From Oligoflexia bacterium (GTDB lineage Bacteria > Bdellovibrionota_G > JANQFH01), in the NCBI GenBank assembly GCA_028277945.1, contig JANQFH010000008.1:195442-259441 (forward strand): a stretch of 64,000 nucleotides of DNA. The letters run 5' to 3'. The position numbers and the translations under genes were made by a program. Shown one piece after another: positions 9,717-63,367 of the stretch. Within the stretch, counting starts at the first letter, position 1. Each line of letters begins with the position of its first letter. Under the pieces are notes generated by a model. It worked only from the letters and a program-made list of their open reading frames with translations. It had not been told where the DNA came from and made no database searches.

Positions 9717-10907
9717 ATGTCTCATCCAAAACCAGAGTCTCCAGCGCTTATGGAGCCGATGCTTCCGGCTGCAGGACAATCCTCGCAACTCGAGGATCTT
9801 GCTGTTGATCTCATTGCCAAGGGCAGTAGCTTTCACAGCCTTTTGCCCACGAACCTACAGACAGGCATTGCGGATCTGGTGCGCTCGATGAACTGCTATT
9901 ACAGCAATCTCATCGAAGATCATCACACCCACCCCCGCGACATTGATCGCGCTCTAGCAGATGATTTCTCTACTGAACCAAAAAAGAGAGCCTTACAATT
10001 GGAAGCCAAAGCGCACATTGAAGTACAACGCCTCATGGATCATGGAGGCATCCCCGCCAATCCAACGACGTCTACATTTATTACCTGGATCCACCGGAAG
10101 TTTTGTGAGCGTTTGCCCGACAATCTTCTATGGACTGAAAACCCTGACAGTGGAGAACGTCTTCGCATCCACGCAGGCAAGCTCAGACAAACTAATGTCA
10201 TAGTTGGTCGCCACCTTGCGCCTGAGGCAAAAAATCTCCACGCTTTTCTGGCTCGCTTTCAAGAGGCCTATGATCTACAGCGCCTTTCCAAAGTGCAACA
10301 GATCCTCGCAGTCGCTGCGTCACATCATCGGTTACTGTGGATCCACCCTTTTCTCGACGGCAACGGTAGGGTGGCACGTCTCTTCTCGCATGCGCTCTTG
10401 TTGCATCTGGGTATTGGCAGTTCCCTTTGGTCAGTATCACGCGGTCTAGCCCGTAGCGTCGACGACTATAAAAGCATGCTCATGCAGGCAGATCAGCTGC
10501 GCCGCAATGACCATGATGGTCGTGGTACGCTCTCCCAACAAGGGCTGATGGATTTTTGTGGCTTTTTCTTGGCCACATGTCTTGATCAAATTGAGTTCAT
10601 GCGCTCTCTGTTAGAACCTAAAGAGCTTCTAAATCGTGTTGCTGTTTATACCGAAGAAGAGATGCGTGCCAAGAGACTTCCAAAAGGGAGTCTGGCGCTA
10701 TTGCGACATGCCATACTGGTTGGCGAGATTGCGCGCCATGAGCTCTCTGGCATTACGGGTTACAAAGAACGTCAGGCTCGTAATGTATTAAAAGAACTAT
10801 TAGCTAAAAAACTCCTTTACTCAGCAACTCCACGTGGCCGCGTGCGTCTGGGTTTTCCTATTGAGGTGGTAGAGCGCTGGTTCCCAACCCTCTACCCTGG
10901 AGTCTAA
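9717..10907 (+). CDS. Fic family protein (AMPylase-type)
   Basis: Canonical Fic motif HPFLDGNGRVARLFSHALL. About 400 aa with a C-terminal wHTH-like tail. No adjacent small antitoxin gene seen. Confidence 0.9.
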   Translation: MSHPKPESPALMEPMLPAAGQSSQLEDLAVDLIAKGSSFHSLLPTNLQTGIADLVRSMNCYYSNLIEDHHTHPRDIDRALADDFSTEPKKRALQLEAKAHIEVQRLMDHGGIPANPTTSTFITWIHRKFCERLPDNLLWTENPDSGERLRIHAGKLRQTNVIVGRHLAPEAKNLHAFLARFQEAYDLQRLSKVQQILAVAASHHRLLWIHPFLDGNGRVARLFSHALLLHLGIGSSLWSVSRGLARSVDDYKSMLMQADQLRRNDHDGRGTLSQQGLMDFCGFFLATCLDQIEFMRSLLEPKELLNRVAVYTEEEMRAKRLPKGSLALLRHAILVGEIARHELSGITGYKERQARNVLKELLAKKLLYSATPRGRVRLGFPIEVVERWFPTLYPGV

Positions 10908-11987: not shown

Positions 11988-12329
11988 GCTGGATAAAACG
12001 GGACTTTGATCTAGTCTGACCTAAGGTTTCTGGCCCCATACTTGGAAGAGCCACGGCACACTCATAAGAGTGCGGGTATCCTGAGACAAAGTCTTTAAGG
12101 TTGTAACGATTGCAAGGATACTTCTTCATCGTGATATTTGTCGAACTCAAGCAAAGCCCTGCCTTCGCCCTGTAATCAAAACAAGTTGGTCGTATAGTGA
12201 CCATTTTGTTTCCATAAAAGACAATCAGCATTCTATCCAACGTTAGGATCAAGACAAAGTTAATCACTCCACTCCCTTCGTGAAGGCTAACAACTGATTA
12301 CTCTTCGGCTAATAATGGTCTGGCTTTCT

Positions 12330-12345
12330 TGGCACACAATTTGCT
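12330..12345 (+). promoter_or_regulatory. sigma-54 (-24/-12) type promoter upstream of short ORF 12393
   Basis: TGGCACacaatTTGCT. GG at 12331-12332 and GC at 12343-12344 are separated by 10 nt, matching TGGCAC-N5-TTGCW. It lies about 48 nt upstream of ATG 12393. Confidence 0.6.
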
Positions 12346-12392: not shown

Positions 12393-12515
12393 ATGAAGGA
12401 CGCAAAAAAGACAAAACGTCAACAGTCTAAGTCGTCAAAAAAAATCTTTTCCCCTATTAAGGACAAGCTGTTAGATACAGCTATGTCGACTATCACATAT
12501 GATGTAACTGGCTAA
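12393..12515 (+). CDS. candidate precursor/signal peptide, 40 aa (cassette D)
   Basis: MKDAKKTKRQQSKSSKKIFSPIKDKLLDTAMSTITYDVTG. RBS GGGAGG at 12383-12388, 4 nt before the ATG. A sigma-54-type promoter lies upstream. The HExxH gene starts 93 nt downstream on the same strand. Confidence 0.5.
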   Translation: MKDAKKTKRQQSKSSKKIFSPIKDKLLDTAMSTITYDVTG

Positions 12516-12608: not shown

Positions 12609-13601
12609 ATGTGTTTAGAATATCATTCCGCCCCAGGAAAATTATCACCTTTTGTGCTTCGAAAAAATTTTCAAGGATATTTGGTTAAAAGCGCTATTTC
12701 CTACATTAATGAAGTTCAGTCGTCTTTAAAATTGGACCTCAACCACATAATATTAAAGTTATCCAGCCTAGATCAAAACCAGAAATTTTCCCCCTCTATC
12801 TATACAGGGTATCACATACTACAGTCAGCTTACGATAGTCAGAATAAAACCCTTGTGTTGGATGCCCTTCATTTCTTGGTTCAGTATTGCAATGATAAAG
12901 GTGGTAACAATAACATTGATTATTCAACTATACTTACAGAACCATATGAGAATCATTGTATAGACACTTTTCGAAAATCGAACCCTAAAGATGACTTCGG
13001 CGTGCCAGCTTTTGACGTTGTAGAAATGTTTCCAATACTGAATGTTAAAAAATATAAAATTCCTCCGTCTAGCCTTAAAAAGGCTGAAGAAATATTATCG
13101 CTGATTGATATGGATTTATGGAAAGAGTATCAAGCTTACGTTTCTATCTTAAAGATCTTCCAAGGAAAGAGTCTTCAAGGTGGAACAAGTCTCAACTGTT
13201 TTGGTACGGTATACCTGAGAATGCCTGAGGATTCCGAACATCCGGTACTCTACTTCCTGGAACATATTGTGCATGAAACCTCCCATTTGCATCTCTATGC
13301 ATTAGCCGGAGACAGAGACCTTGTTAGAAACGATTCAGCCTCTGTTTATGACTCGCCAATACGACACGACAAACGGCCCATTATTGGGGTATTTCACGCT
13401 ACGTTTGTTTTGGCTCGCTTAGTCCGTATATTTCAGCGCTACCTAAATCATTTTAGCAATGACTATCCAGAAGGAACTACCTTCTACAACAGAATAAGCA
13501 GAGACTTCAAAACCGGATACTCTATATTGAAAGAAAATTGTCTTTTTACAACGCTTGGGCGACAAATTTTTGATTCGTTAGATGATTGTACGAAAATTTG
13601 A
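12609..13601 (+). CDS. HExxH-motif protein (RiPP-associated HEXXH-domain type; possible peptide hydroxylase or peptidase) (cassette D)
   Basis: HIVHETSHLHLY is followed by KRPIIGVFHATFVLAR. The same two blocks occur in paralog 26946-27779 (HELGHHYL .. KRPLFGIYHAAFAEA). Confidence 0.6.
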   Translation: MCLEYHSAPGKLSPFVLRKNFQGYLVKSAISYINEVQSSLKLDLNHIILKLSSLDQNQKFSPSIYTGYHILQSAYDSQNKTLVLDALHFLVQYCNDKGGNNNIDYSTILTEPYENHCIDTFRKSNPKDDFGVPAFDVVEMFPILNVKKYKIPPSSLKKAEEILSLIDMDLWKEYQAYVSILKIFQGKSLQGGTSLNCFGTVYLRMPEDSEHPVLYFLEHIVHETSHLHLYALAGDRDLVRNDSASVYDSPIRHDKRPIIGVFHATFVLARLVRIFQRYLNHFSNDYPEGTTFYNRISRDFKTGYSILKENCLFTTLGRQIFDSLDDCTKI

Positions 13602-14607
13602 AAGGAACGACCCTCTTGGAAATACCGCGTTTGGCAAACTACCTATCAAAAAACTGGTACGTGCTGCAGTCTTCCCTGATCGCTTTTTTGTAGGCAAAGC
13701 AGGTATCAAGCTTGTCAATTGGCAAGGAAATAATCAGTACCTTTGTGGCTTCTCATGCAGCAGACAACCGGCTATTGCCGAAAATGTAGCTGTTTTCGAA
13801 CTCTGTGAACGCTTGACAGCAAAGTATGAATTTCAATCTTTTCTGGGCACGAATATGAATACTTTCAGAGCGTTTACCTGGCCCGATGGGAATCCAGCTA
13901 GAGTGACAAAATCTCAATTATTCCTTGGTCCAAATCCATTTTCCCAATTTGGACAAGAGGCAACTGGCCTAGGTTTTGGCCCTGATTATCATCAAGCATT
14001 AAATCACGCTATTCTTGAATTGTTGGAGAGGCACATCTGCGCAGGTCTTTGGTATGAAGCAAAATATAGGCTATGCAAGGCAATCGACAGAGTATCTTTA
14101 GACTCCTTTGACATTTTCTACTATACCCTCCACAGACCGAAGATACCATTTGTTCTAGCCATTATATACTCGAATGAACTTGAGGTGCTTTCAGTCGGCC
14201 ATGCAATAAGATCTACGTTTGAGGAGGCGAAGGAAAAATCCTACTCCGAAGCAGTGATGCTGTTAGATTGTGTTCTCCACAAGGATAACGGTATCTGTAC
14301 CAATTTAAGAACTAAAAATCGTTTGCTTTCTCAAAGAGGTCCCTTAGCAAAAGAACGATTCCAACAATTTAACGATCTGACAGTAAACGTGGCAGCAGCA
14401 AAAAATATCCTAAGCCGATATTTTTCAATATCTGAGATTACTGCGGCGGTGCTTGGCACTAATGACGATATCGAAATTATTCAACTTTTCCGGGATAGAA
14501 ACTTCTGGTCTCTACGAGCACTTTCGAAGAAGGTGGCTACCTTGGCAGAACGTCGACAATCGAATCGATATTCAGAAAAACAAAAGATTCTGGACCCTTA
14601 TTGCTAA
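13582..14607 (+). CDS. minimal YcaO-domain protein (cassette D)
   Basis: ExxER motifs VAVFELCERL and ATGLGFGPDYHQALNHAILELLERH. Overlaps the HExxH gene by 20 nt. Paralog of 5737-6675. Confidence 0.6.
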   Translation: MIVRKFERNDPLGNTAFGKLPIKKLVRAAVFPDRFFVGKAGIKLVNWQGNNQYLCGFSCSRQPAIAENVAVFELCERLTAKYEFQSFLGTNMNTFRAFTWPDGNPARVTKSQLFLGPNPFSQFGQEATGLGFGPDYHQALNHAILELLERHICAGLWYEAKYRLCKAIDRVSLDSFDIFYYTLHRPKIPFVLAIIYSNELEVLSVGHAIRSTFEEAKEKSYSEAVMLLDCVLHKDNGICTNLRTKNRLLSQRGPLAKERFQQFNDLTVNVAAAKNILSRYFSISEITAAVLGTNDDIEIIQLFRDRNFWSLRALSKKVATLAERRQSNRYSEKQKILDPYC

Positions 14608-14619
14608 GATCAGCATACA

Positions 14620-15888
14620 TTAGAGCTTGTCGGAAATAAGGCTATATCTTTTGGCCGTGCTCCACAACAACAGTGTTGAAGCAAGCCCCACAATGCCAGA
14701 AAGACCAATTAACTTGCCTATGGCTGGATCGGCTTTCATAAGTACAGTGAAGATTACCATGGACAGTATATACCCGACTCTGCCATAAGCCTGTCCTTTC
14801 GATATTGAGTAGGTAAACCGATCTTGGCTAAATTGTGACTGAATCTTGTTTGAAAACATTATAAGGGAAACACCGTACAGGATACCGATAATGATCATTA
14901 GGGCAATAAAGGAGTCTCGAGAAGTTCCTCCAGCAAGAATTAGTGTTAGACTTAGAGCTACAAGAAGAAGAATCAATTTATGAATACTACGGAAGTACAC
15001 TTGAAATGCATTTGGGAAGAGAGTAATTGCGGTTAATGCTAGGAGGAATCCAAAGTAGATAGACGATGGACCTGAAAGTATTCGTGTAATTCCAGAAAGA
15101 TGTTTTGATGCTGCTAGCGATTGCATAAGAATAAAGGCAACCGCTCCAAAAGCTAAATTTGTCAAAAATAGAAACTGATTGTTCCATTTTAGCCAATGGT
15201 CGTCTTTTAAATCTATGATACGTTGATTTGCATTGTTCTGAAAAACATCAACCGATACTTGTTGCATACTGGTTATCTTTTTCATAAAGGATAGTAAAAG
15301 GAAGAGTCCAAGTAGAGAAATAAGGTAGGTTATGGAGTTTACGATGCAGACGACAGACCATCCACTAGTTAGCAGCAACGCTGCGACTGAAGCACTTACC
15401 ATGTTTACTCCACGATTTGCAGCATTCGAGAACGCTAAAGCTCTAGGTAGAGGGAAAAAATTATTCCTATCCAGGAAGATAGGAATAATGGTGGTCAGTT
15501 GTCTTGTTATAAGTGATAATGTACGCATTACTATCATCAGAGCGAGAAATAAGCCGTAAAATAGGTGCCTTGGAAGATATGATATTAAGATAGGCAGAAT
15601 GGTCAGTCCCATTAGGATAAATTCGATACATAGGGCGTAAAAAATTCTATCCTTGATATTTATAATGCGATCAATGTATTTTCCAAGAAAGGGTGCTAAA
15701 CCAATTTGCAGTATGGCATCTGTAGAGAACAGAATCCCCGATAACAATATTCCCGAACTATCGTCAAGAAAGAGTGCAACTGCGAAGAAAAGTAAAAGGC
15801 TATCCCCAAGTTTGGAAATAATCGATAAAGAAAGATACCCCCAAATAGGCGCCTTTGTCATGTTGTGGATTGGCTTTTCTCTATCCAT
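14620..15888 (-). CDS. MFS-type transporter (cassette D)
   Basis: About 12 predicted hydrophobic helices. Loop LGKYIDRIINIKDRI is in the MFS motif-A position. The start is uncertain (15888 or M10 at 15861). Confidence 0.7.
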   Translation of the reverse strand: MDREKPIHNMTKAPIWGYLSLSIISKLGDSLLLFFAVALFLDDSSGILLSGILFSTDAILQIGLAPFLGKYIDRIINIKDRIFYALCIEFILMGLTILPILISYLPRHLFYGLFLALMIVMRTLSLITRQLTTIIPIFLDRNNFFPLPRALAFSNAANRGVNMVSASVAALLLTSGWSVVCIVNSITYLISLLGLFLLLSFMKKITSMQQVSVDVFQNNANQRIIDLKDDHWLKWNNQFLFLTNLAFGAVAFILMQSLAASKHLSGITRILSGPSSIYFGFLLALTAITLFPNAFQVYFRSIHKLILLLVALSLTLILAGGTSRDSFIALMIIIGILYGVSLIMFSNKIQSQFSQDRFTYSISKGQAYGRVGYILSMVIFTVLMKADPAIGKLIGLSGIVGLASTLLLWSTAKRYSLISDKL

Positions 15889-15902: not shown

Positions 15903-16034
15903 AAGGCAAGAATTAGGCCAATAGGAATGTCCGGTATTCCAATGGGTTGTAGATAGGTAACGCTTAGGAACAGTATGTCTGATATAGGACGCTCTGTTCA
16001 CCCTGAAGACAGTTTGTTTGTATTGCGAACAATT
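15903..16034. repeat. about 130-nt conserved intergenic element, copy 1 (copy 2 at 28016..28146)
   Basis: Ungapped alignment by eye gives roughly 80% identity with 28016-28146. Best-conserved blocks are TTAGGCCAAT, GTCTGATATA and TGAAGACAGTTTGTTTGTATT.CGAACAAT. ORFs over the two copies lie on different strands, so the element is not coding. Confidence 0.7.
15905..15920 (-). promoter_or_regulatory. sigma-54-like -24/-12 motif inside repeat copy 1, facing MFS gene 14620..15888
   Basis: Minus strand TGGCCTaattcTTGCC. GG at 15919-15918 and GC at 15907-15906 are 10 nt apart. It is very close to ATG 15888, so the transcript would be nearly leaderless unless the start is M10. Confidence 0.35.
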
Positions 16035-16149
16035 GAGCCGTTGCCGGTCTGCCATCATGGAACCTCGCATCTGCCTTCAAGGTAAAGGTATACTCATCTC
16101 CTGCATCAGAGAGCAGCCCATTTTCTTGACCACAAACCAACGAACGCAT
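16033..16149 (-). pseudogene. 5' remnant of a family-5 solute-binding protein gene
   Basis: MRSLVCGQENGLLSDAGDEYTFTLKADARFHDGRPATAQ.. matches SSWKVSDAGDEYTFTLNSDARFHDGSPVTARD of 43334-44740. This includes a 31-nt identical run, gatgcaggagatgagtatacctttaccttga. Homology breaks at about 16034, where repeat copy 1 begins. Confidence 0.7.
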
Positions 16150-18395: not shown

Positions 18396-19142
18396 CTACT
18401 CTCCAAAACCCTTCACAAAAAACTTCTCATCGATCAACCGCAGACCCTCATAGACCTCATACTTGATCAAGGCACCCTTGGTATCGCGGTAGAGCCCTTT
18501 GCGCACTTGTCTTGGTTTTTTGTAAAGGCCCTCAACCTTGCTCAAAAAGGCTGCCAGTTCCTCTCTACTAAAAGGGCCATGCCGTTCCCAATCGAGCCAA
18601 TCAGGGCCAATGGAGACCACCACCGATAGCTCACGGCTGCCAGGTTTTACTCCACCAAAGAGCTTCTTTGCCATCCTCTGACTGCCAAGCGTCAGGAGGT
18701 GCCAGTTGCGGCTTTCAAAATGCTCTCGCTTGTTCTGCTGATCCATAAACATAAAATAGACGCCTTCGCTCCAGGAGCTACGATCCAGATTGACGCCTTT
18801 TTTGAAGCGCTCTAAAAATGTTTTTAAATCGGCAGGTTGATCATGCCAATGCCGTATGATCCTTTTGATAAAAGACCAGGTTGAGATGACAGACATGCCC
18901 TCCTCATCTTGCGACTGATCCAGAGAGTCGAGTTTTTCTAATTCATAACCTCTAAACAGTTCCGAACCTGTATCAGGCTCTGTTACCAGCAGCAGAGCAC
19001 CATCTTTAAGTTCCACAGTATCTCCAAACTCTATAGGTCTTTCGATATCCTCAGGAACTCCAGGGATATCAATCACTGTATCTCCCTGCTGTGCAAAGGG
19101 AGAGTCTGGATGGGGGGGTCGTTTTTCTCTCTCACGCATCAC
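18396..19142 (-). CDS. cytoplasmic protein, candidate immunity protein for the RES-domain toxin
   Basis: No signal peptide. Its start overlaps the toxin stop by 4 nt (19139-19142), the usual toxin-immunity coupling. No recognisable motif. Confidence 0.5.
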   Translation of the reverse strand: MMREREKRPPHPDSPFAQQGDTVIDIPGVPEDIERPIEFGDTVELKDGALLLVTEPDTGSELFRGYELEKLDSLDQSQDEEGMSVISTWSFIKRIIRHWHDQPADLKTFLERFKKGVNLDRSSWSEGVYFMFMDQQNKREHFESRNWHLLTLGSQRMAKKLFGGVKPGSRELSVVVSIGPDWLDWERHGPFSREELAAFLSKVEGLYKKPRQVRKGLYRDTKGALIKYEVYEGLRLIDEKFFVKGFGE

Positions 19143-20923
19143 TCTAGGGCCTCAAAAAGAACGACGTTAAAGCCATCTGGATTTCTTGCCGAGGGTACGA
19201 CAATACCACGATAGTGCAGCCGCGCCAATTCTCCTATTATTTGTGTTATTGAGTAATCCTCAGAGATCAAAGCTTCAGGAGCTATATTTAATAGCTCCCT
19301 GACACTTGGTTCATTAAGATCGAGCATGTTGTCGAGTGTGACATAGCGGCTTCTTGTTTCAATCACCCCCTTGACACCATGGGCTCGCATTTCCGCGGCG
19401 ATGGTCTGCCGATCGCCGCTCATGTAAAGCGCGCTTCTTCCCGGCGCTGAATAGCGATGGTTGGCGGCAATATTACCCTGCGGTATTTTCCACGAACCTG
19501 CTCGGTAAACATCACCTCTGTATTTACTTCCCTTGACAACACCTTGAACCAGCTTTTTGGTGGTATCAGGCCCCAAAGCTTGGCTCGCCCTTATCACCGC
19601 AGGCAGATGCTGCTGATCAAAGAGCTTTCTTGCCAAGCCACCACCACCGCGCCCTAGCAAACTGGTGGTCCCTCGGACCATGACCGTGCCTGACAGGACC
19701 ATAGGCACCATCATGGAGACAACTGTCTCTAAAGCCATCTCAAGCGGCAAGCTCGCCTCGACAACTCCAGTTGACGAATCCTCTTGTAGTGCCCACAAAT
19801 GGTAGTCTGCTGCCGCCATTTTGAGTGCTCCTGACAAGAACTCGCCGTCTCGGATATCTTGCACTCCCTCAATCATTAAATAGGCGGCATCTATAAGATG
19901 TGGCAGATCTGGCAGGGTTAAGGCATGATCGAGGGTAATCTCCACATGTTGCCAGATGTGTTGGGAGAGCCTCTCACCTAGATCGCGCTCTAACAGCGCC
20001 AACTCATCGAAGGTCTCAACACGGATGCGCGCCATGGAGCTGTCTGCTTCCAAATGGAGTCGACCTTTGGCCGTTGATTGAGCGCGTTCTGCTCGGTCAA
20101 TGAGTTCGTCTAATGTCTCCTGTATCCAGCGATGTCGTATGAGATCTCGCATGCTGCGAAGCTCGTGAACCCGCCGTGAGAATGCCGCGTAGCCATAGGC
20201 AACCACCTCCTTACTTGAAGCCCGTTCCACAGCCGCCAGGGCAACATCGGTGGAGGTGGCCGTGAGCCCCAGAAATAGTGGCAATCCATGTCTGTTTTCA
20301 GGAAGTGGCAACTGAGCTTGCTGTTGAAGTTGCACAAAAAGAGAGGAGTTGTGGATCATGTCACTAGCGGAACTGTGAGAAGCGAGATCGGAACCACCCC
20401 TTTCGTGGAGGGTGCGAATGTCGAGGCCGCTTGCAGATGATTCATCTCGAAGCTGATCATCTTGAGCTTGCTCTGCAGAGAGGCTTAGATGTTTGTTACT
20501 CTCTGCAACTGCAGTGTTGGCTTGAAGTAGGCTGAGGCCACGTTGCAACCCTGTAAGGTACTGAACTCTACGCCGAGCTTCCACATCACTGTGAGTCGGT
20601 GCTGAGCCTTCTTCATCCTCATCATCAAATCCACCGATCTCTCCTCTCGGGCTATCAAAGAAAGGGTCAAATCCTTCATCTTCTGTTTTGTCTTTGGGTT
20701 TTTGAGAGGAAACGATAACAATAGGCGTGTCAAAAACAATATGGACGTTGCCATCGGAGTCAACGGTCACATTTCCTGGCTCTGTGGTGTAGTCGTGCTC
20801 TCTTTCCTGAGCTGATTCAGTTTGTCCTGCATCATCTTGTGCAACAAGCTCTCTCTGCAACGGCGAAAAAAGACAAATCGTCGCGATCAATAAATAAAGC
20901 AGGCTTTTACATGAAATTTTCAT
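19139..20923 (-). CDS. Sec-signal polymorphic toxin with C-terminal RES domain
   Basis: Signal peptide LLYLLIATICLFSPL. The C-terminus NHRYSAPGRSALYMSGDRQTIAAEMRAH .. YRGIVVPSARNPDGFNVVLF fits the RES (Arg-Glu-Ser) pattern. Its overall build is similar to 52634-54766. Confidence 0.75.
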   Translation of the reverse strand: MKISCKSLLYLLIATICLFSPLQRELVAQDDAGQTESAQEREHDYTTEPGNVTVDSDGNVHIVFDTPIVIVSSQKPKDKTEDEGFDPFFDSPRGEIGGFDDEDEEGSAPTHSDVEARRRVQYLTGLQRGLSLLQANTAVAESNKHLSLSAEQAQDDQLRDESSASGLDIRTLHERGGSDLASHSSASDMIHNSSLFVQLQQQAQLPLPENRHGLPLFLGLTATSTDVALAAVERASSKEVVAYGYAAFSRRVHELRSMRDLIRHRWIQETLDELIDRAERAQSTAKGRLHLEADSSMARIRVETFDELALLERDLGERLSQHIWQHVEITLDHALTLPDLPHLIDAAYLMIEGVQDIRDGEFLSGALKMAAADYHLWALQEDSSTGVVEASLPLEMALETVVSMMVPMVLSGTVMVRGTTSLLGRGGGGLARKLFDQQHLPAVIRASQALGPDTTKKLVQGVVKGSKYRGDVYRAGSWKIPQGNIAANHRYSAPGRSALYMSGDRQTIAAEMRAHGVKGVIETRSRYVTLDNMLDLNEPSVRELLNIAPEALISEDYSITQIIGELARLHYRGIVVPSARNPDGFNVVLFEALE

Positions 20924-22313: not shown

Positions 22314-24110
22314 CTAACTCTGAGGCCGCAGGCCAATTGGAACGAGGCTAGCGAGACTTTTAGGAATACATTTCACACCAAGTCGAGCACAATTCATGAG
22401 GACAACCTCCTCTTCAAAATGGCTTGTCACAAGTATAGCCTGATCTTGAAGGTTGAGCTCTTCAATGAGATCGAGCCCGGTTTCCTTAAAGTTGAGAAGT
22501 TCATAGTCACACAGAAATAAAGCATTGTGTGTATCATTCTTCTCAACCCATGTTCTTATGGCGTCGGGTGTAGACAGATTGTCAAGTTTGATCCTATTTC
22601 CTCCTCCGTTGCGTAATGCATGAAATCGCTCTCGCCAAATCTGATGAATCGTAGGATCGTCGTCCAAGGTTACAATGCGGGAGTCTGGCGCAACTTCAAG
22701 TCTGGGTACAAACCAAGACGGAGGACTTTCTTTGGGTAAAAGCAGAGATATCTGAGTACCTTGTCCTTCCGTACTCTCAATTTTAAGCTCACCTCCCCAG
22801 CTTTCAGCGGCCACTTTTGCATGATAGACTCCAAGACCTAGACCACTATCCGTTCCCCCCTTTCCATAGGTCACTCCCTTTTGGCCCAGTTTTCCGAGAA
22901 TGTCCGGTGGTATTCCTGTCCCGTCGTCTTTTACATAGAGACACAATGTTGAATTATTATGTTGGAACAGGCCAATTTCGATGACACCCTCATCGGTCAT
23001 TGCTTCAACAGAGTTATTTACAAGATTTGAAATTACACGCTTAAGCTCAACAGCACTGACTTTGGCAAACAGTCCGTAGGATTTTTCATCCAATTTGGCC
23101 TCAATTCGGATTCCTGTTTTAGTTCGGAATTGACCCCGTTTTTCGCTGACGATACTTTCTATAATACTTGATATCAACCAAGTCCTTCTCATGGCTTGAT
23201 TGGGCCTCTCGTCATGTTGAGCCTGATGTATATTTCTGCCCAGCAAGTTGTTGGCGATATCTTTAATACGTTGGGACGCATTACGTATAAGAACGCGTTT
23301 CTCTTCCGGAATGTCTACAAGAGTGCCAGCCAAAAGATCCAATGCTGCTACAGGAGCTCGTATATCATGCGCGATTTGTTGAGCCACTTGGTAAACAGCT
23401 TCCGCCTTTTTTGTTTCGATCCTATATTGATTTGACTGAAGAGTTTGTTGCGCAAGTTTCCTAATGGAAGAGGTGAGAATAACAACTTCGGACAGATCAC
23501 CCTTGATATTTGGCTGATCAAGGAGTGAAAGATCTTCTAAGTTGCCACTTTCAGCTGTTTGACTAAGCGTGTGTAGCGGTGCTGAGATCCGATGTGCCAC
23601 TCTTTTTAGCATAAGGAAAGCTATAGCAGCGATAGTCATTAAGACAAATAGAGATACTCCCATAATCCGGTAGTATAGACCACGAATGATTCCGGTATTA
23701 AACCTCATACTAACCATAGCCGCTGGTTGTGTCTTTTCGTCGTCAAAATATACAGTGCGTTCAACGACAAATTTACTCGTCCTCGACACTTCTGCAGTTT
23801 CTGGTAAACTCTCGTAAATAACTTCTCCTCTTATGTTCGAAATAATAATGTTATCTATGGCCTCTTTTTTTATCAAGAGATTGCACTTTTCACGGATGCT
23901 GAGGTGAGAGCCGGTAAGAATTTCGTAGCGAATATTCTCGGAAAAGAGTTCTAAAATCATCTCATGTTTTGACGCAACTAAGTTATCGAAACTCTTGTTA
24001 ACCGCAAATAGAATTAGGATTCCCACAAGAATTAAACCCAATGATACTGTTATTGAAAAAGTTCTGAGTAAACTGGTGAATACAGTATGTTGACGTTTAG
24101 GCATTTCCAC
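22314..24110 (-). CDS. hybrid sensor histidine kinase (cassette B)
   Basis: Two TM segments. H-box IAHDIRAPVAAL. N-box NLVNNSVEAM. G-boxes DDGTGIP and GTDSGLGLG. C-terminal receiver-like domain (IVTLDDD .. LFLCDYEL .. ILVTSH .. IPK). Confidence 0.85.
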   Translation of the reverse strand: MEMPKRQHTVFTSLLRTFSITVSLGLILVGILILFAVNKSFDNLVASKHEMILELFSENIRYEILTGSHLSIREKCNLLIKKEAIDNIIISNIRGEVIYESLPETAEVSRTSKFVVERTVYFDDEKTQPAAMVSMRFNTGIIRGLYYRIMGVSLFVLMTIAAIAFLMLKRVAHRISAPLHTLSQTAESGNLEDLSLLDQPNIKGDLSEVVILTSSIRKLAQQTLQSNQYRIETKKAEAVYQVAQQIAHDIRAPVAALDLLAGTLVDIPEEKRVLIRNASQRIKDIANNLLGRNIHQAQHDERPNQAMRRTWLISSIIESIVSEKRGQFRTKTGIRIEAKLDEKSYGLFAKVSAVELKRVISNLVNNSVEAMTDEGVIEIGLFQHNNSTLCLYVKDDGTGIPPDILGKLGQKGVTYGKGGTDSGLGLGVYHAKVAAESWGGELKIESTEGQGTQISLLLPKESPPSWFVPRLEVAPDSRIVTLDDDPTIHQIWRERFHALRNGGGNRIKLDNLSTPDAIRTWVEKNDTHNALFLCDYELLNFKETGLDLIEELNLQDQAILVTSHFEEEVVLMNCARLGVKCIPKSLASLVPIGLRPQS

Positions 24111-26945: not shown

Positions 26946-27779
26946 TTACACTTCTATTCTCTCTCTGACACCTAGCATAAACAACTTAATGTCCTTATCG
27001 AATTCCAGAAGACCAGATTTTGTAATAGTAGTAAGATCCTTTATATACTTGTTCTTATAACAATCTAAAATACGACTGGAACTCTGCTTGATTAACTCTT
27101 CTATCGAGTGATTCGAATGTATCCGCAAACCAAGTTCCAGCATGGCCGCCTCAGCAAAGGCTGCATGATAGATACCGAACAGTGGCCTTTTCATGTTTCT
27201 CAAAGCTGATCGGTCTTCTTTTGCCCATGGATAGCGATTCACTGTGGCTTCACTTTTTGTTGCAAAGACAATAGTAAGGTAGTGATGGCCCAACTCGTGA
27301 GCTAGAATTTCTGCCCACTTCACAGGGTCATCACTATTCATTACATATTCAATAAGTCCAAAGACTTGGGGATCAGAGGCTGATTCGTGTTCAACACCTT
27401 GCCTGGGAAAACACATTCTTGGTTTGATAATTTGCTCAAATGCAAATAGTTTCTTCCATACTACTCCGATAATTGTTCTTGCTGCAGAGTATAGTGCTTC
27501 TTTTTCTGGATAGCGTTGCAGTGAAGAATCAAAAATAATGTTACTGCCAACTACGAACTTGCTACGTGCGATATCACGAGTTATTAGATTGCTAACTTGG
27601 TCAGTTGACAGACTAAACTTATCACGATTGAAATAGATCCAAGAGAGAGTTGATAAGCTCAATTCTCTATTAATGTCTATATTGCGGAATGCTGGTATGA
27701 GCTTAAGAGCTTGCATTCCCTGCTGTCTAAATTGACTAACGTATTTTTTTGTCAGATCAATTGAGAATATAGAAGGCAT
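26946..27779 (-). CDS. HExxH-motif protein (cassette B), paralog of 12609..13601
   Basis: ILAHELGHHYL, then KRPLFGIYHAAFAEAAM. Both blocks are shared with the cassette D protein. Confidence 0.6.
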   Translation of the reverse strand: MPSIFSIDLTKKYVSQFRQQGMQALKLIPAFRNIDINRELSLSTLSWIYFNRDKFSLSTDQVSNLITRDIARSKFVVGSNIIFDSSLQRYPEKEALYSAARTIIGVVWKKLFAFEQIIKPRMCFPRQGVEHESASDPQVFGLIEYVMNSDDPVKWAEILAHELGHHYLTIVFATKSEATVNRYPWAKEDRSALRNMKRPLFGIYHAAFAEAAMLELGLRIHSNHSIEELIKQSSSRILDCYKNKYIKDLTTITKSGLLEFDKDIKLFMLGVRERIEV

Positions 27780-27817
27780 TCATCATGCCAATTTTTTATT
27801 ACGTTTTAGTTGCCTCA

Positions 27818-27922
27818 CTACGACCCGGTAGGTATGCTAGCTAACTTAGCACCTAGCACACGGTGTGATTGAAAAGAGAAATTGAAGGAAACTGTCTTTT
27901 TACTTTCGTTGCTTTTTGCCAT
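27818..27922 (-). CDS. candidate precursor/signal peptide, 34 aa (cassette B); not in ORF track
   Basis: Minus-strand ATG at 27922-27920. Translation checked codon by codon: MAKSNESKKTVSFNFSFQSHRVLGAKLASIPTGS*. RBS AGGAG at 27934-27930, 7 nt before the ATG. The stop is 38 nt upstream of the HExxH start. Confidence 0.5.
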   Translation of the reverse strand: MAKSNESKKTVSFNFSFQSHRVLGAKLASIPTGS

Positions 27923-28015
27923 TTTCTAGCTCCTGGTTACAGATGGTTTGTAACTTGTTTGTAATTTTGTCAGTTACACATTATCTGGAATCGATAGCAA
28001 TTAATACCTTTTCAA

Positions 28016-28146
28016 AAGCAAGAGTTAGGCCAATGGGAATATCCAATATTTCAATACGTTGTAAATATATGATACTCGGAGACAGTGTGTCTGATATAAG
28101 ACATTCTGTTCACTATGAAGACAGTTTGTTTGTATTTCGAACAATA
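28016..28146. repeat. about 130-nt conserved intergenic element, copy 2
   Basis: See copy 1 (15903-16034). It lies upstream (minus-strand sense) of the cassette B operon. Confidence 0.7.
28017..28032 (-). promoter_or_regulatory. sigma-54-like -24/-12 motif inside repeat copy 2, facing cassette B operon
   Basis: Minus strand TGGCCTaactcTTGCT. GG at 28031-28030 and GC at 28019-18 are 10 nt apart. The -12 element is about 95 nt upstream of the short-ORF ATG at 27922. Confidence 0.5.
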
Positions 28147-28315
28147 GCCTCAGTAAGGATTGAGGTAGGTTAGGCTCCATTTTTTATTCCTAGGTAACCC
28201 ACTGAAAGTAAACAAAAGGTGCAGTTGACGCAACTTGGGTTGGCACCGATCTGATGCGGCGCGCCCTTATTTGATATATTCTTGTTATTTTCATATAGTT
28301 AGCGAACCTATCTTC

Positions 28316-28331
28316 TGGTACACTAGTTGCA
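28316..28331 (+). promoter_or_regulatory. sigma-54-type promoter upstream of pilin gene
   Basis: TGGTACactagTTGCA. GG at 28317-18 and GC at 28329-30 are 10 nt apart. It is immediately followed by a perfect 9-bp inverted repeat, AACTCCTAG(28331-39)..CTAGGAGTT(28351-59). About 170 nt upstream of ATG 28500. Confidence 0.5.
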
Positions 28332-28499
28332 ACTCCTAGAGAGTAGGGTACTAGGAGTTAATAGGGAACTAAAGTTACAAAAACCTCGGTATGAGGTTGC
28401 AATGTAACACGATAATGTATTAAAATTAAATTCTTAATTGAAAAAATAATACGTAACTTCTAGAGCTACGAACGTGTGTCATCAAAGGAGGGGGGCAAC

Positions 28500-29189
28500 A
28501 TGTTTCGCAACAAGGGTAGACGGTTTTCAAATAACGGCTTTTCTCTAACCGAGGTGATGATCTCGGTATCGATTGTTGGCATCCTCTCTGCTGTAGCCAT
28601 TCCTACGTATAAGAAACACTTCCGCCGCGCAAAAATCGCTGAGGCGCATCTGGGTTTGGCTGACCTACACAAATCCATGCAAGCGCACTTTCTCCAACAT
28701 CGTTGGTACAACGCCAATATAGATCAACTAACTAGTGACGCTAAGTTCACAGACTCAAAGTCACGGGCAATCTATGGGTTTAATGCAAACCAATATACTG
28801 GAGGTACATTCCCAACATGTAAAACCACCAACGAGGACTGCTTTACTACTCATGGGGAGGGTAATGATTTAAACGTAACTCCTGCGGATATCTTATTTGA
28901 ACGAGCCTGCCCCCAAGTGTCCTTCGGATCACTAGTAAAGTGTTCCTTTCCTATTCCGAGCTATGATCCTCGCAGCGGCGACCCTAAAGCCAGCGATTTT
29001 ACGTGGGGTCGACCAACCCGTTATGAAGCGCATGCAGTCATGGATATAGATAACGACGGCGAGTTGACAGTCTTTGGTGTTAATGAAACAGGTACGATTT
29101 TCCAGCTCTGTAATGATGGTGACAGTGTTGAAGTGGCTGGCAGTTATACTGGGGCACTTGCGGGAGATGTTATCTGTAGTAGACCCTAG
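28500..29189 (+). CDS. type IV pilin / pseudopilin-like protein
   Basis: Start at ATG 28500 behind AAGGAGGGGGG. Prepilin N-terminal motif ..NNGFSLTEVMISVSIVGILSAVAIPTY (G|FxLxE plus a hydrophobic helix). Confidence 0.8.
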   Translation: MFRNKGRRFSNNGFSLTEVMISVSIVGILSAVAIPTYKKHFRRAKIAEAHLGLADLHKSMQAHFLQHRWYNANIDQLTSDAKFTDSKSRAIYGFNANQYTGGTFPTCKTTNEDCFTTHGEGNDLNVTPADILFERACPQVSFGSLVKCSFPIPSYDPRSGDPKASDFTWGRPTRYEAHAVMDIDNDGELTVFGVNETGTIFQLCNDGDSVEVAGSYTGALAGDVICSRP

Positions 29190-40174: not shown

Positions 40175-40258
40175 CTAGATCCCTACAGTCACGCCACGTA
40201 TTACGACAATCTTCTCCAATTTATCTAAATCTATGTATTCTCGTCTTCTTTTTTTCAT
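40175..40258 (-). CDS. candidate precursor/signal peptide, 27 aa (cassette C); not in ORF track
   Basis: Minus-strand ATG at 40258-40256. Translation checked codon by codon: MKKRRREYIDLDKLEKIVVIRGVTVGI*. RBS AGGAG at 40269-40265, 6 nt before the ATG. The stop is 44 nt upstream of the kinase-like gene. Confidence 0.45.
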   Translation of the reverse strand: MKKRRREYIDLDKLEKIVVIRGVTVGI

Positions 40259-40350: not shown

Positions 40351-40367
40351 TGCAAGGAACGTGCTAA
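40351..40367 (-). promoter_or_regulatory. near-consensus sigma-54-like motif (AG instead of GG at -24) upstream of short ORF 40258
   Basis: Minus strand TAGCACgttccTTGCA versus consensus TGGCAC-N5-TTGCA. About 93 nt upstream of the ATG, similar to the cassette B spacing. The G-to-A change in the normally invariant GG lowers confidence. Confidence 0.3.
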
Positions 40368-40434: not shown

Positions 40435-40904
40435 CTAGTGCATAAAACGACAAATTGTATCTCTTACGACCAAGGTTAATAAAAGTTAATAGTGATTGAA
40501 GGGGAGGATTAGTTGTGGAGTGTTAACCCTTGGATGATATTAGACGAATTTTGAAAATCGGTCTTAATCTATTGATAAAAAAGAAACTTTTTGGGAAATT
40601 GGGGTTGATTGCCGACTGACCCAACAAAATACTACAGAAGTCTTAATGTGACAGACGTAACACATGATTCATTTCAGATGCTTATGTTGTAGTGCAGAGT
40701 GTATAGAATTTTCTCAACAAGAAGGCATATATCCTGGGAAAGGCTGCTGGTTATGGGATGTGGCCTTGCCTACTGGTATGGCGACTTACAACACTTACTC
40801 TTTTGTTAATTTCCGTAGGACTAAGAGTGGTTGCGAGGCTGGTGTACAGCATTCTCCCTATTTCAGTGGAGGGCTTGTTTTCAGAGTTTAAACACCTAGT
40901 TCGC

Positions 40905-41050
40905 TATGAGGCTTTCCATAAACTGGTAGCCTTCGGCAATTGCAGCATCGGTAATTTGGTCCTTCAAACTGTCAACACTTCTCCGTCCCCAAGCACATGA
41001 AGTGTGTTGAACTTGAAATAGGTCTGCTACCTAAGCGAATGCTTTCCTAC
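40905..41050 (-). pseudogene. 3' remnant of a paralog of gene 44960..46414
   Basis: Minus-strand translation ..LFQVQHTSCAWGRRSVDSLKDQITDAAIAEGYQFMESLIAN* aligns with ..FLFSKSPECWAKNATGLKDQITDAAITEGRQFMESLIVN* of the 484-aa protein. An in-frame stop lies further upstream. Confidence 0.65.
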
Positions 41051-44824: not shown

Positions 44825-44959
44825 CTAGGCTTTTTCAAGAATGAGTTTGGTTTTGAGCCGAAAGGGCTCTAGCAGTATATCCAGGGTACCCCGTTTCAGG
44901 CGGCGACGTCCTTTAAGAAAGGCGGAGATGTTTGCTGGCGTTGCATGGGCAAGTAAAGC
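44825..44959 (-). pseudogene. possible C-terminal remnant of an XRE-type HTH gene
   Basis: ALLAHATPANISAFLKGRRRLKRGTLDILLEPFRLKTKLILEKA* resembles the recognition-helix end of XRE antitoxins (..NIS.FL.G.R.L....L..LL..L.L). It has no start codon and begins right after the stop of 44960-46414. Confidence 0.3.
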
Positions 44960-46414
44960 CTAATTCACTATTAGGCTCTCCATAAACTGGCGGCCTTCGG
45001 TAATTGCCGCATCGGTAATTTGATCCTTTAAACCTGTGGCATTCTTTGCCCAACACTCAGGGCTTTTTGAGAATAGGAATCGCTGCTGGTTGGCCTTGAA
45101 CCCATATTGGTGTCCGCCACCTCTGCCGCGCTGGGCGTGACCGTTGTAAGAGGTACAATAAGACATCTCTGCCCATTCTAAATCCTCTCGTCTCGCTTTC
45201 AAAACCAATGCCGGACAATCATCAAACCATTTCAACACGGCATCTGCCTGTTCACTACATTTAAGCAAAAGACCAGAGATAACATCCATAAAAGCCATTC
45301 CTGCCATACACTGACCTACACTCAACTTTTGCGGCCTATGAATATGCCGATGCATCCAATGCCAAACAGGCATTAAAGAAGAGTGTAATCCATTTACCAG
45401 TTCATGCATATAGGCTCGTTCGTATTGTACTACCGGATCTTCAGAATTGATTGATCCGATCAAAAATTCTTCTTTAATCTTTATCTTCATCTCTCCATTG
45501 TTTTCAAAAACCCATTTTTCAAACATCTCGTCTATAGCCGAACGGATCATCAGCATTACAAAATCCCATGCTGAACCACTAAGATAATGCCTTACAAAAT
45601 CGTGCCCCGTACCTGTCGCCTCCTCATCACTCCAGTTTGGCGGTAGTTTTTTTGGCACTGCTCTGATAATTCGATCTTGCTTCAGCGTAATATGCAATGG
45701 CTTGATATAAGGGGTGTCTCCAGGACCTTTTGCTCTAGATAAATCACCCAACTTAGTTCGCTCAAACCGAGTATCAGACACCTTACTTGCTGGCGTTGCC
45801 ACTGAAATCAGCATCATGATACCTTTAAAGCCTCCGTTATCACCCTCGAACATCACCTTTTCATAAGCCTCATTTGAAAAGAAATTCCCTTGTGAGTGAC
45901 TGACTGTTAATGTATTGTAACCTTCCTCCAGTGATTTTCGATAAGCCGCTACTTGTTCAGCAATGTCAGCTCTTCTTTGTCTGTTCACAAATTCGTCAAA
46001 TAACCCCCTAATCGACTTAGAGATGTTCACCAAAAAATCCGGCGCTAGGTGCTGCTGGGAGAACAGACGAAACATGCTCCCTGAATCTAAGACAACGTTT
46101 TTTCTACGCAGATCGTCCCGCTTTTGATCCATTGCCTCGGCAATCTGCAGCAAAACTGTTTGATCGGTGTTGAACGCGATGTTCGGCTCAGCGTCTCGTA
46201 CTAGCCCTTCCACACCTCTCAAAACACGCATTTTCTCCCAAAGCTGAGTCCAAGATTTTTGTGCCTCCTCAAAAGAGGTAAACATTCCATTTGCGAAATA
46301 TAATCTCGATTTCCTCCAACACTCACCTGCACCATAACCTACCTCAGCCACAGTCAGCAGAACGACAAGGATCCCTAGAGCAATGTTCAAATTTCTACTT
46401 GTGTTCAAATTCAC
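44960..46414 (-). CDS. membrane-anchored/secreted protein with SHSQG nucleophile-elbow-like motif (putative alpha/beta-hydrolase or lipase-type effector)
   Basis: N-terminal anchor LNIALGILVVLLTVAEV. The motif LTVSHSQGNFF resembles GxSxG hydrolase elbows. The function is a weak guess. Confidence 0.55.
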   Translation of the reverse strand: MNLNTSRNLNIALGILVVLLTVAEVGYGAGECWRKSRLYFANGMFTSFEEAQKSWTQLWEKMRVLRGVEGLVRDAEPNIAFNTDQTVLLQIAEAMDQKRDDLRRKNVVLDSGSMFRLFSQQHLAPDFLVNISKSIRGLFDEFVNRQRRADIAEQVAAYRKSLEEGYNTLTVSHSQGNFFSNEAYEKVMFEGDNGGFKGIMMLISVATPASKVSDTRFERTKLGDLSRAKGPGDTPYIKPLHITLKQDRIIRAVPKKLPPNWSDEEATGTGHDFVRHYLSGSAWDFVMLMIRSAIDEMFEKWVFENNGEMKIKIKEEFLIGSINSEDPVVQYERAYMHELVNGLHSSLMPVWHWMHRHIHRPQKLSVGQCMAGMAFMDVISGLLLKCSEQADAVLKWFDDCPALVLKARREDLEWAEMSYCTSYNGHAQRGRGGGHQYGFKANQQRFLFSKSPECWAKNATGLKDQITDAAITEGRQFMESLIVN

Positions 46415-47260: not shown

Positions 47261-47352
47261 AACCTTGACGGATTTAATCAGTCAAGGTAGTCAATGAACT
47301 AGGATTAGTAGGATTATAAATAAGCTTGGAAAGGAAATTGCAATGCGGAGTT
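47261..47352 (+). repeat. about 90-nt repeat, copy 2
   Basis: See 43255-43343. Here the shared ATG (47343) opens only a 16-codon ORF, MRSLMLQFIGRKYVSR*. Confidence 0.6.
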
Positions 47353-50425: not shown

Positions 50426-50654
50426 GAAACAGGCAGCAGCACAGATTGGTCATTTAGTGAAAAAGACCCGTAAAAGTCTAGGTGTCACCCAGAAGGAGTT
50501 GGCGCTGACCTCGGGTACAGGTCTGCGCTTCATCATTGAGCTGGAGAAGGGCAAACCGACCTGTCAACTAGCCAAGGTGCTGACGGTTCTACATACGCTG
50601 GGCATCAAGCTTGAGCTAACGGCGCCAGCCACTGCAAGAGATGACGGCAAATGA
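50424..50654 (+). CDS. hipB: HipB-like XRE-family antitoxin/repressor
   Basis: HTH LGVTQKELALTSGTGLRFIIELEKGKPTCQLAKVLTVLHTLGIKLEL. Overlaps hipA by 4 nt. Confidence 0.8.
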   Translation: MKQAAAQIGHLVKKTRKSLGVTQKELALTSGTGLRFIIELEKGKPTCQLAKVLTVLHTLGIKLELTAPATARDDGK

Positions 50655-57904: not shown

Positions 57905-58138
57905 ATGAAACAAGCGAAGCTATTTAAGAACGGTCAGAGTCAGGCGGTGAGACTGCCGAAGGAATTTCGTTTTAAGGGGAATCGGGTATTTATTCGTCGG
58001 ATTGGGAATGCTGTGGTACTTCTTCCTGAAGATCAGCCATGGCAACCACTGTTAGAAAGCCTGGAACACTTTTCAGATGATTTTATGCAGCAACGTCGTC
58101 AGCCTTCCTCGCAAGAGAGAGATCTCTCTTTTGACTGA
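57905..58138 (+). CDS. vapB: VapB-type (AbrB/SpoVT fold) antitoxin
   Basis: MKQAKLFKNGQSQAVRLPKEFRFKGNRVFIRRIGNAVVLLP is the typical AbrB-like antitoxin N-terminus. Its stop overlaps the vapC start. Confidence 0.8.
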   Translation: MKQAKLFKNGQSQAVRLPKEFRFKGNRVFIRRIGNAVVLLPEDQPWQPLLESLEHFSDDFMQQRRQPSSQERDLSFD

Positions 58139-58536
58139 TGTATCTTCTTGATACCAACATTTGTATTTATATTATCCGAAAAAAACCGAAGAAAGTATTA
58201 AACCAACTGCAGTCTATATCTCCTACTGAGATTGGCATCTCTGCTGTGACCCTTGGCGAGTTGCAGTATGGTGTTGAAAATAGTAAACAGCCGACAAAAA
58301 ATCAAGAGGCGCTGAATTATTTTTTGGCACCATTAGAAATCTATCTGTTCGGTGTGGAAGCAGCTCAGATGTATGGTAAGGTACGTGCTGATCTCGAGAC
58401 CAGAGGCAAGACCATTGGGCCGTTTGATACGATGATTGGGGCACACGCTTTGGCATTAGGGGCGATTTTGGTTACAAATAATACTAGGGAGTTTTCGCGG
58501 ATTAAGAGTCTATCTGTCGAAAACTGGACTCGGTAG
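58138..58536 (+). CDS. vapC: PIN-domain ribonuclease toxin VapC
   Basis: MYLLDTNICIYII.. (first acidic residue), then ..SAVTLGELQYG.. and ..VTNNTREFSRI. 132 aa. Confidence 0.85.
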   Translation: MYLLDTNICIYIIRKKPKKVLNQLQSISPTEIGISAVTLGELQYGVENSKQPTKNQEALNYFLAPLEIYLFGVEAAQMYGKVRADLETRGKTIGPFDTMIGAHALALGAILVTNNTREFSRIKSLSVENWTR

Positions 58537-63206: not shown

Positions 63207-63367
63207 TGCTTTTCAGCTGGGACATCGATGCCCCTGATATCCAAGCCTTGAAGCAGATTTATCGAGAGTGCCGGTTTGCTTTCGTGAAATAACCACTTGA
63301 AATCTATGAAATATCTGGCAGGATGCAGACAGAGCGGGTGGCATATTCGTTGCTTCACTAGGTCCTG

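Follow-up and report, generated by a model that had tools for sequence, protein, structure and literature searches.

A duplicated 131-bp module with a sigma-54-type element precedes a putative peptide-signal operon in an Oligoflexia bacterium

In Vibrio, the periplasmic binding protein LuxP and the hybrid kinase LuxQ sense autoinducer-2 (AI-2) and signal through the phosphotransfer protein LuxU to LuxO, a sigma-54 activator that drives the Qrr small RNAs. In Gram-positive bacteria, peptide autoinducers sensed by two-component systems are textbook knowledge (agrBDCA, comQXPA, nisin and subtilin). To our knowledge, such peptide signals are barely documented in Gram-negative bacteria. The DNA described here is a 64,000-nucleotide stretch from an Oligoflexia bacterium (contig JANQFH010000008.1, positions 195,442 to 259,441; "the window"). 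It carries several cassettes, labelled A to E, with genes for hybrid histidine kinases and substrate-binding proteins (SBPs). Region 27818-28146, read on the minus strand, lies at the head of cassette B. We put the probability at roughly 0.6 that this region comprises the control sequences of an operon for a peptide signal, together with its leading gene.

The cassettes are like the Vibrio pathway in having a periplasmic binding protein gene beside that of a hybrid kinase with a C-terminal receiver. Phosphotransfer to a receiver-AAA+ (NtrC-type) activator acting with sigma-54 would be needed, as in Vibrio, several receptor cassettes could converge on one activator, and in a related locus, L081, all the parts stand in one string of genes. 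Unlike AI-2, the signal would be a ribosomal, enzyme-modified peptide from the same operon. The binding protein belongs to SBP_bac_5, the Opp/Dpp peptide-binding family, and does not have a sugar-binding fold of the LuxP type. Sigma-54 would act here on the precursor operon and on a gene for an exporter, whereas LuxO drives small RNAs. The window does not encode the activator, nor was a LuxU-type Hpt protein found in it; L081 has instead a 72-residue open reading frame (ORF) in which an H-box-like motif can be recognized by eye. The LuxPQ-LuxO-like logic proposed in an initial annotation of this DNA is partly supported, by the pairing of hybrid kinase with SBP and by the linkage of kinases to activators in relatives; the output differs from that in Vibrio, and the promoter motif is not conserved in the family.

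The Gram-positive autoinducing circuits share with the cassettes a short precursor accompanied by a modifying enzyme, an exporter and a sensor kinase, a design that suggests positive feedback. Here, however, the kinase is a hybrid that senses through a separate periplasmic binding protein, the output would be a multi-step relay and sigma-54 rather than an OmpR- or LytTR-type regulator at a sigma-70 promoter, and the hosts are Gram-negative lineages (Bdellovibrionota-like, Elusimicrobiota and others). The cassette design is a member of neither the LuxPQ-LuxU-LuxO nor the agr/nisin type of circuit, and full-text literature searches found no description of it. At the promoter, the closest models are the classical targets of bacterial enhancer-binding proteins (bEBPs), glnAp2/NtrC, nifH/NifA and pilA/PilR, with the same GG-N10-GC core and TGGC and TTGC flanks; the candidate dyad lies at a comparable place, about 90 bp upstream of the predicted start, and -35 and -10 boxes would not be required. 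A pilin gene of the window likewise carries a site, a situation known from Pseudomonas, Myxococcus and Geobacter (PMC2725144). What sets the present locus apart is that promoter and candidate enhancer behave as one portable unit of 131 bp, a copy of which stands before a second gene.

The sigma-54 consensus is mrNrYTGGCACG-N4-TTGCWNNw, with near-invariant GG and GC (PMC2725144). A position weight matrix (PWM) was built from 90 Geobacter PromScan sites (PMC2725144, Additional file 3) with neutral spacer columns, and about 128,000 positions of the window were scored against it; the median of the Geobacter training set is 13.4 bits. The highest score in the window, 18.5 bits, belongs to the site 48 nt upstream of the Shine-Dalgarno (SD)-preceded ATG of short ORF D at 12393. 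The probability that 300 nt of random sequence contain a site of 18 bits is P = 0.0007. The motif, which the initial annotation had called near-consensus, is in fact a perfect one. The motif reported upstream of short ORF B is likewise present and lies on the minus strand, which had gone unstated. It reads TGGCCT-N5-TTGCT (TGGCCTaactcTTGCT, 28032 to 28017), is situated 95 nt upstream of ATG 27922 and scores 14.0 bits (rank 8), close to the training median. TGGCCT-type -24 regions are found in the Geobacter training list (CTGGCCTGCTAATTGCA). The further statement that every short ORF is preceded by such a promoter was too broad: cassettes A and E have no such site and that of cassette C is defective.

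The B promoter is the 3' end of a 131-bp module that occurs a second time in the window. The two copies are 80% identical (E = 3e-29) and are set in unrelated flanks. Beyond the -12 element the similarity stops. Each copy faces a gene, and the orientation relative to that gene is the same in both. Within the module the -24/-12 17-mer is conserved at 15 of 17 positions. The element of copy 2, TGGCCT-N5-TTGCC, retains GG-N10-GC and was first picked up by the PWM. The sigma-70-like hexamers of B decay in copy 2 (TTTACA to TCTACA and GATATT to GACATT). The best-conserved block lies 60-130 nt upstream and contains a 28-bp dyad, ACAGnnnGTCn8GACnnnCTGT, found only in the two module copies (the second at 15970-15997), with 0.12 matches expected. 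Enhancer-binding proteins usually bind at about this distance from the start, near -90, and the dyad is a candidate for a bEBP-bound enhancer. We know of no described enhancer that it matches in sequence.

Immediately upstream of copy 2 lies a fragment of an SBP_bac_5 gene, cut exactly where the module begins. Cassette D therefore appears to have lost its receptor by rearrangement, leaving its exporter under a copy of the B control region. If the module acts as proposed, it would be a portable cis unit able to recruit new genes, here an exporter, into a regulon. A 75-nt repeat (86.7% identity) between 40895-40969, in the intergenic region that separates cassettes C and E, and 44959-45033, at the 3' end of a 484-residue gene (44960-46414), is another sign of recombination among the cassettes.

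Other interpretations of the module sequence were rejected. As a structured RNA it gave z-scores of -1.2 to +0.6, with no signal on either strand. As coding sequence (a 51-residue ORF, 28025-28180) it has a broken frame in copy 2 and mostly non-synonymous substitutions. A BLASTX extension that would derive the 5' part of the module from SBP coding sequence is weak beyond the FHDG block and was not relied upon.

Sigma-54-like sites are not confined to the cassettes. TGGC-N7-TTGCW occurs 7 times in the window against 1.58 expected. All 11 intergenic PWM matches of at least 10 bits face a downstream gene, compared with 1.04 expected from Markov shuffles, and 11 were reached in 0 of 300 shuffles; two of the 11 became intergenic when three gene starts (22056, 28497 and 63367) were re-set by hand. 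For co-oriented intergenic matches of at least 14 bits the count is 6 against 0.10 expected. Overall, the sites are enriched roughly tenfold at upstream, co-oriented positions. In a simple scan, which reports sigma-70-like sites upstream of B, the count of such sites, 5, is not above that of shuffles (2.3 +/- 1.7). The fourth-ranking match precedes a type IV pilin gene, identified by Pfam N_methyl; pilin genes are classical sigma-54 targets (PMC2725144). Because the motif enrichment and the pilin site point the same way, the organism very probably uses sigma-54. The pilin and B sites are divergent within one 574-bp intergenic region, which the two promoters may share. The kinases and the C-type cassette are closest to metagenome-assembled genomes (MAGs) of Bdellovibrionota, Oligoflexia and Elusimicrobiota, at no more than 51% identity. 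In the likely phylum, rpoN has been reported in Bdellovibrio (bd0843) and Bacteriovorax (PMC3464611, PMC3526173), and bEBPs are present in Bdellovibrionota FG-1 and other relatives.

Of the further co-oriented sites, one of 16.9 bits lies just 15 nt upstream of ATG 57538, the start of a four-gene operon without Pfam matches, and implies a near-leaderless transcript. Another, of 17.2 bits (63338-63354), precedes a plus-strand gene that runs past the end of the window; the listed 116-residue minus-strand ORF at 63213-63563 is therefore probably spurious.

Table 1. Positions of the features discussed, in window coordinates unless a related locus (L number) is named
Feature	Position	Strand	Remarks
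Sigma-54-type element D, TTGGCACACAATTTGCT	12329-12345	+	Motif TGGCACacaatTTGCT at 12330-12345; TGGCAC-N5-TTGCT, perfect match to TGGCAC-N5-TTGCW
Short ORF D, 40 aa, MKDAKKTKRQQSKSSKKIFSPIKDKLLDTAMSTITYDVTG	12393-12515	+	GGGAGGA SD 4 nt 5' of ATG
131-bp module, copy 2	15903-16033	-	TTGGCCTAATTCTTGCC at 15921-15905, 17 nt 5' of ATG of MFS_D (14620-15888)
SBP_bac_5 gene fragment, LSDAGDEYTFTLKADARFHDGRPATAQ	16034-16140	-	78% amino acid identity to SBP_E residues 55-81
Hybrid histidine kinase, cassette B	22314-24110	-	Pfam HisKA, HATPase; C-terminal receiver by fold
Short ORF B, 34 aa, MAKSNESKKTVSFNFSFQSHRVLGAKLASIPTGS	27818-27922	-	Predicted cassette B precursor peptide; AGGAG SD 7 nt 5' of ATG 27922
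Predicted 5' untranslated region of B transcript, ~84 nt	27923-28006	-	Start inferred 12 nt downstream of the -12 C at 28018
Sigma-54-type -24/-12 element B, TTGGCCTAACTCTTGCT	28017-28033	-	GG 28031-30, GC 28019-18
131-bp promoter-plus-enhancer module, copy 1 (candidate)	28015-28145	-	Upstream of precursor B, HExxH, MFS, SBP and kinase genes
28-bp dyad	28082-28109		Centred ~-90 from predicted start; candidate bEBP-binding enhancer
Sigma-54-type element, CTGGTACACTAGTTGCA / CTGGTACactagTTGCA	28315-28331	+	15.4 bits, rank 4; upstream of type IV pilin gene 28497-29189
Short ORF C, 27 aa, MKKRRREYIDLDKLEKIVVIRGVTVGI	40175-40258	-	AGGAG SD; predicted precursor of DUF4135/LanM-kinase-like cassette
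Defective sigma-54-like element C, TTAGCACGTTCCTTGCA	40351-40367	-	AG instead of -24 GG
Further co-oriented sigma-54-like sites	57570-57554 (-); 63338-63354 (+); 22087-22071 (-); 46973-46957 (-); 47326-47342 (+)		
Toxin-type genes	9717-10907, 19139-20923, 50651-51907, 58138-58536, 62183-62596		
C-type precursor family members	window 40175-40258; L001 7149-7226; L002 about 2701; L003, L022, L030, L031, L078		
72-aa ORF between bEBP and SBP genes, L081	4176-4394	+	H-box-like LHDFQSEFHAILN / LHDFQSEFHAILNAVEL, by eye; coupled ATGA overlaps on both sides
Divergent receiver-AAA+ regulator / sigma-54 site / CxxC Zn-ribbon	L081 2229-2582; L023 about 4720-4936; L008 about 1820-2045	- (all three)	
Tandem Cys-rich precursor genes, L043, MELFKIEVEKVEAQTRGCGCVCVPGVGGGAGENK, MRELFKIEVEVLNETTTRACQCLCSGL...	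13319-13520	+	Directly after sigma-54 site

Operon B is arranged on the minus strand in the order precursor B, hydroxylase, major facilitator superfamily (MFS) exporter, SBP_bac_5 receptor and hybrid kinase. The enzyme directly downstream of short ORF B is an alpha-ketoglutarate (aKG)-HExxH peptide beta-hydroxylase of 277 residues (TIGR04267, 43.6 bits; cutoff 40). Enzymes of this kind are already known from the biosynthesis of ribosomally synthesized peptides with post-translational modifications (RiPPs; PMC12636437). Short ORF D is followed by another aKG-HExxH gene (12609-13601; TIGR04267, 66.4 bits) and a YcaO-like gene (13582-14607; Pfam YcaO), and short ORF C by genes for a DUF4135/LanM-kinase-like protein, an SBP and a kinase. 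All three short ORFs have strong SD sequences. As expected of RiPP-type precursors, they stand directly upstream of a peptide-modifying enzyme; syntenic precursors are present in the relatives L081 and L065, and C has relatives in an IDLxxLE family. Judged from gene content, short ORFs B, C and D are the predicted precursors of cassettes with a built-in receptor, and modification and export of the peptide are likewise predicted.

In L081 a syntenic 32-residue ORF precedes an HExxH enzyme that is 39% identical over its full length to that of cassette B, making this locus the closest relative of the cassette. No BLASTP alignment was obtained between precursor B and the L081 precursor; a pattern common to both, SFN..LG..AS.P, is visible by eye only. 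Their proposed homology is based on synteny and on this pattern. The C-type precursors make up a conserved family, encoded upstream of DUF4135-like enzymes and marked by an IDLxxLE motif that lies about 10-12 residues from the C-terminal end. The motif is kept upstream of the homologous enzyme in 7 related loci (Bdellovibrionota, Elusimicrobia). Longer versions, which begin with a signal peptide, also occur.

Just past the stop codon of precursor B, the HExxH start codon is overlapped by a hairpin (GGCATgatgaATGCC, 27775-27789, minus strand) that a T-rich stretch follows. By attenuating transcription or translation, this hairpin could leave the precursor in excess of the enzyme.

The kinases are matched by Pfam to HisKA and HATPase, and to no receiver at E <=1e-3; their last ~130 residues match Response_reg at E = 0.03-0.07. 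A profile of 22 sequences of the C-terminus found no sequence match in the PDB. The DD, D, T and K positions are invariant in the kinase C-termini and have CheY-like spacing. An AlphaFold2 model of this part, built from a 3-sequence alignment of the window kinases, has a (beta-alpha)5 fold (predicted local distance difference test score 87.3; predicted TM score 0.82), and the top matches of the model to the PDB in Foldseek are almost all receiver domains (best E = 3.5e-5). By predicted fold, the kinases are thus true hybrids, as the initial annotation had stated, and a phosphotransfer step is therefore needed. An SBP_bac_5 gene adjoins the kinase gene in cassettes A, B and C, and this pairing recurs in relatives.

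That annotation had also reported no response regulator or bEBP in the window, and this holds. No Sigma54_activat or Response_reg match was obtained by Pfam among the approximately 50 ORFs of at least 100 residues in the gene map, and when all six frames were searched by hmmsearch at full sensitivity, a bEBP profile recovered only the weak receiver tails of the kinases. Hpt likewise had no Pfam match among the ORFs of this length, a search that a small divergent phosphotransfer protein could escape.

Activators of this kind are encoded in related loci. These loci were collected around kinase homologs (80) and around HExxH-enzyme homologs (6). A protein with the GAFTGA motif lies within 10 kb in 16 of the 80 kinase loci, and all nine that were checked consist of a receiver and a Sigma54_activat domain. 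In L015, L039, L043, L051 and L075, some of which are probably orthologous loci rather than independent events, the bEBP gene is the immediate convergent neighbour of the kinase gene. L081 has on one strand, in this order, a receiver-AAA+ activator, a 72-residue ORF, an SBP, the 32-residue precursor, the HExxH enzyme, an MFS protein and a hybrid kinase. Its activator (Sigma54_activat, 1e-39; Response_reg, 1e-19) resembles the activators beside the kinase in 12 other loci (E = 1e-51 to 1e-60) more closely than it does the generic NtrC-like proteins of L001, L066 and L054. This resemblance points to a cassette-linked subfamily of activators. The 72-residue ORF is a candidate phosphotransfer protein of the DHp (dimerization and histidine phosphotransfer) type; it has no Pfam match, and neither the window nor the other loci encode a homolog.

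In three of these loci a sigma-54 site lies directly before a precursor-like gene. In L043, an Elusimicrobia MAG, the cassette bEBP gene is divergent from TCGGCATaataaTTGCT, which is followed by tandem precursors rich in cysteine. L072 has an SBP-kinase pair, then TGGCACtggaaTTGCT, a 35-residue precursor and another such site; a radical-SAM enzyme comes next and a bEBP further along. In L064, TTGGCAGaaggaTTGCA is followed by a 24-residue precursor, an enzyme, an SBP and a kinase. The link between the kinase family and the activators is well supported. For the precursor itself, control by sigma-54 is a variant that recurs and not a rule of the family. The wiring recurs in Elusimicrobiota and Bdellovibrionales relatives and is not universal; the regulation of the cassettes is therefore evolutionarily plastic. 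The distant HExxH loci L082-L086 have no SBP or kinase context and were uninformative here.

These observations suggest the following sequence of events. Sigma-54 RNA polymerase would bind the -24/-12 element at 28033-28017 and remain closed. An NtrC-family enhancer-binding protein encoded outside the window would then bind upstream, most likely at the dyad near -90, and open the complex. The transcript would begin near 28006 and would consist of an 84-nt leader followed by the SD-preceded 34-codon precursor gene and the genes of the hydroxylase, exporter, receptor and kinase. The predicted leader contains an imperfect stem-loop just upstream of the SD sequence (inverted repeat 27937-27955 / 27972-27990), with a weak fold score (z = -2.08). 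Module copy 2 would drive the MFS_D exporter, so that both units would answer to one activator. The D precursor operon would have its own independent consensus promoter, without a recognizable shared enhancer, and the cassette C site is probably weak or non-functional.

The B and D elements are probably genuine sigma-54 promoters with the module as a control unit. The step by which the cassette kinases would feed the activator by way of a phosphotransfer protein, and the peptide would thereby induce its own synthesis, is the least certain and is proposed only tentatively. About as doubtful is the picture of the cassettes as a form of Gram-negative peptide quorum sensing, in which a ribosomal peptide, hydroxylated or modified in another way and exported by the MFS protein, would be sensed by an Opp-like SBP and hybrid kinase, with a dedicated NtrC-type activator and sigma-54 providing feedback, the 131-bp module acting as a portable unit and parallel cassettes converging on one unlinked activator. 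The promoter analysis supplies parts of such a circuit that can be tested: two strong sigma-54 sites, the 131-bp module with its 28-bp dyad and the L081-type activator subfamily.

Several results weigh against the proposed mechanism. There is no gene for RpoN, a bEBP, a response regulator or an Hpt protein within the 64-kb window. The B element differs from TGGCAC at two positions, and the C site lacks the -24 GG and with it the GG-N10-GC pattern. Neither D nor C has a counterpart of the dyad upstream, and the dyad is unlike the palindrome GTATCGAtttTCGATAC seen by eye beside the L081 bEBP gene. The predicted leader in copy 2 is only ~5 nt long. No further copy of the module was found in 1.27 Mb of related loci or, by exact-pattern scan, in metagenomes. 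With two known copies, the conservation of the module could reflect recent duplication rather than selection. Among relatives, the L081 precursor is internal to its operon, where it follows the SBP gene at ~20 nt and lacks a separate promoter; L043, L064 and L072 were found by a motif-first search and are an ascertainment-biased sample. Of nine precursors located through their homologous enzymes, only one has an upstream site scoring 12 bits or more, indicating that the motif is not conserved in the family. This single case is L065 (12.4 bits, with TTGAT in place of TTGC); L001 scores 9.0 and the rest at most 5.7. A random 300-nt stretch reaches 12 bits with P = 0.010.

The alternative that fares best concerns cassette C, whose site is somewhat more probably not a working sigma-54 promoter than one, the short ORF having another type of promoter or being silent. 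The one-mismatch variant described in the initial annotation does exist (TAGCAC-N5-TTGCA; TAGCACgttccTTGCA, 40366 to 40351, minus strand). Its mismatch, however, falls in the -24 GG, which is replaced by AG. Only 4 of the 90 Geobacter predictions lack GG at this position, and none of these 4 was validated by primer extension. The score is 10.3 bits (rank 37), and 10 bits is reached by 3.4% of random 300-nt stretches. In 7 loci with homologous C-type precursors, no upstream score exceeds 9.0. On the other hand, all but one base agree with the consensus, and the orientation and the 93-nt distance to the ATG fit a promoter. No sigma-70-like site is found in the intergenic region of about 1 kb, and in L001 TGGGAGagtggTTGCA lies 82 nt upstream of the C-type precursor.

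A less likely explanation, though one to be taken seriously, is that the sigma-54 promoters are real and respond to a bEBP that the cassette kinases do not feed, governed perhaps by nutrients, surface contact or prey. There would then be no autoinduction loop, and the SBP-kinase pairs would have another output. Within the window the cassettes have no linked activator, and D, B and C have no common upstream site, only scattered 10-mers. In L081, a strong sigma-54 site (16 bits) faces away from the activator gene. The genes that it drives are those of a CxxC Zn-ribbon protein and an ECF-type (extracytoplasmic function) sigma factor, not the operon-internal precursor; the pairing of bEBP and Zn-ribbon genes is also seen in L023 and L008. 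The Zn-ribbon protein, with the sigma factor in L081, may be a real downstream output of the pathway. Against a separate activator, L043, L072 and L064 have a sigma-54 site directly upstream of precursor genes that lie beside a kinase gene, a bEBP gene or both. Moreover, the precursor comes first under the B promoter and the same transcript would include the receptor and the kinase, the usual autoinducing design.

The weakest explanation, in which the B motif is a chance match, transcription depends on a sigma-70-type promoter and the 131-bp repeat is a recombination scar between decaying cassettes with no regulatory role, draws on the two mismatches at B, on two 9/12 sigma-70-like sites just upstream (28093-28064 and 28065-28038), on the frequent rearrangements indicated by the SBP pseudogene fragment and the 75-nt repeat and on the limitation of the module to two copies, and is made quite improbable by a chance of ~0.007 for a TGGC-N7-TTGCW match in the 550-nt single-strand target, by a sigma-70-like count within that of shuffles and hexamers that decay in copy 2 while -24/-12 is kept, by a repeat whose end coincides exactly with the -12 element and whose two copies each face a gene, and by the enrichment of upstream, co-oriented sigma-54-like sites.

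No known RNA families or tRNAs were found in the window. Toxin-type genes are unusually frequent in it and are interspersed with the cassettes; they comprise Fic, a RES domain protein, HipA and two PIN genes.

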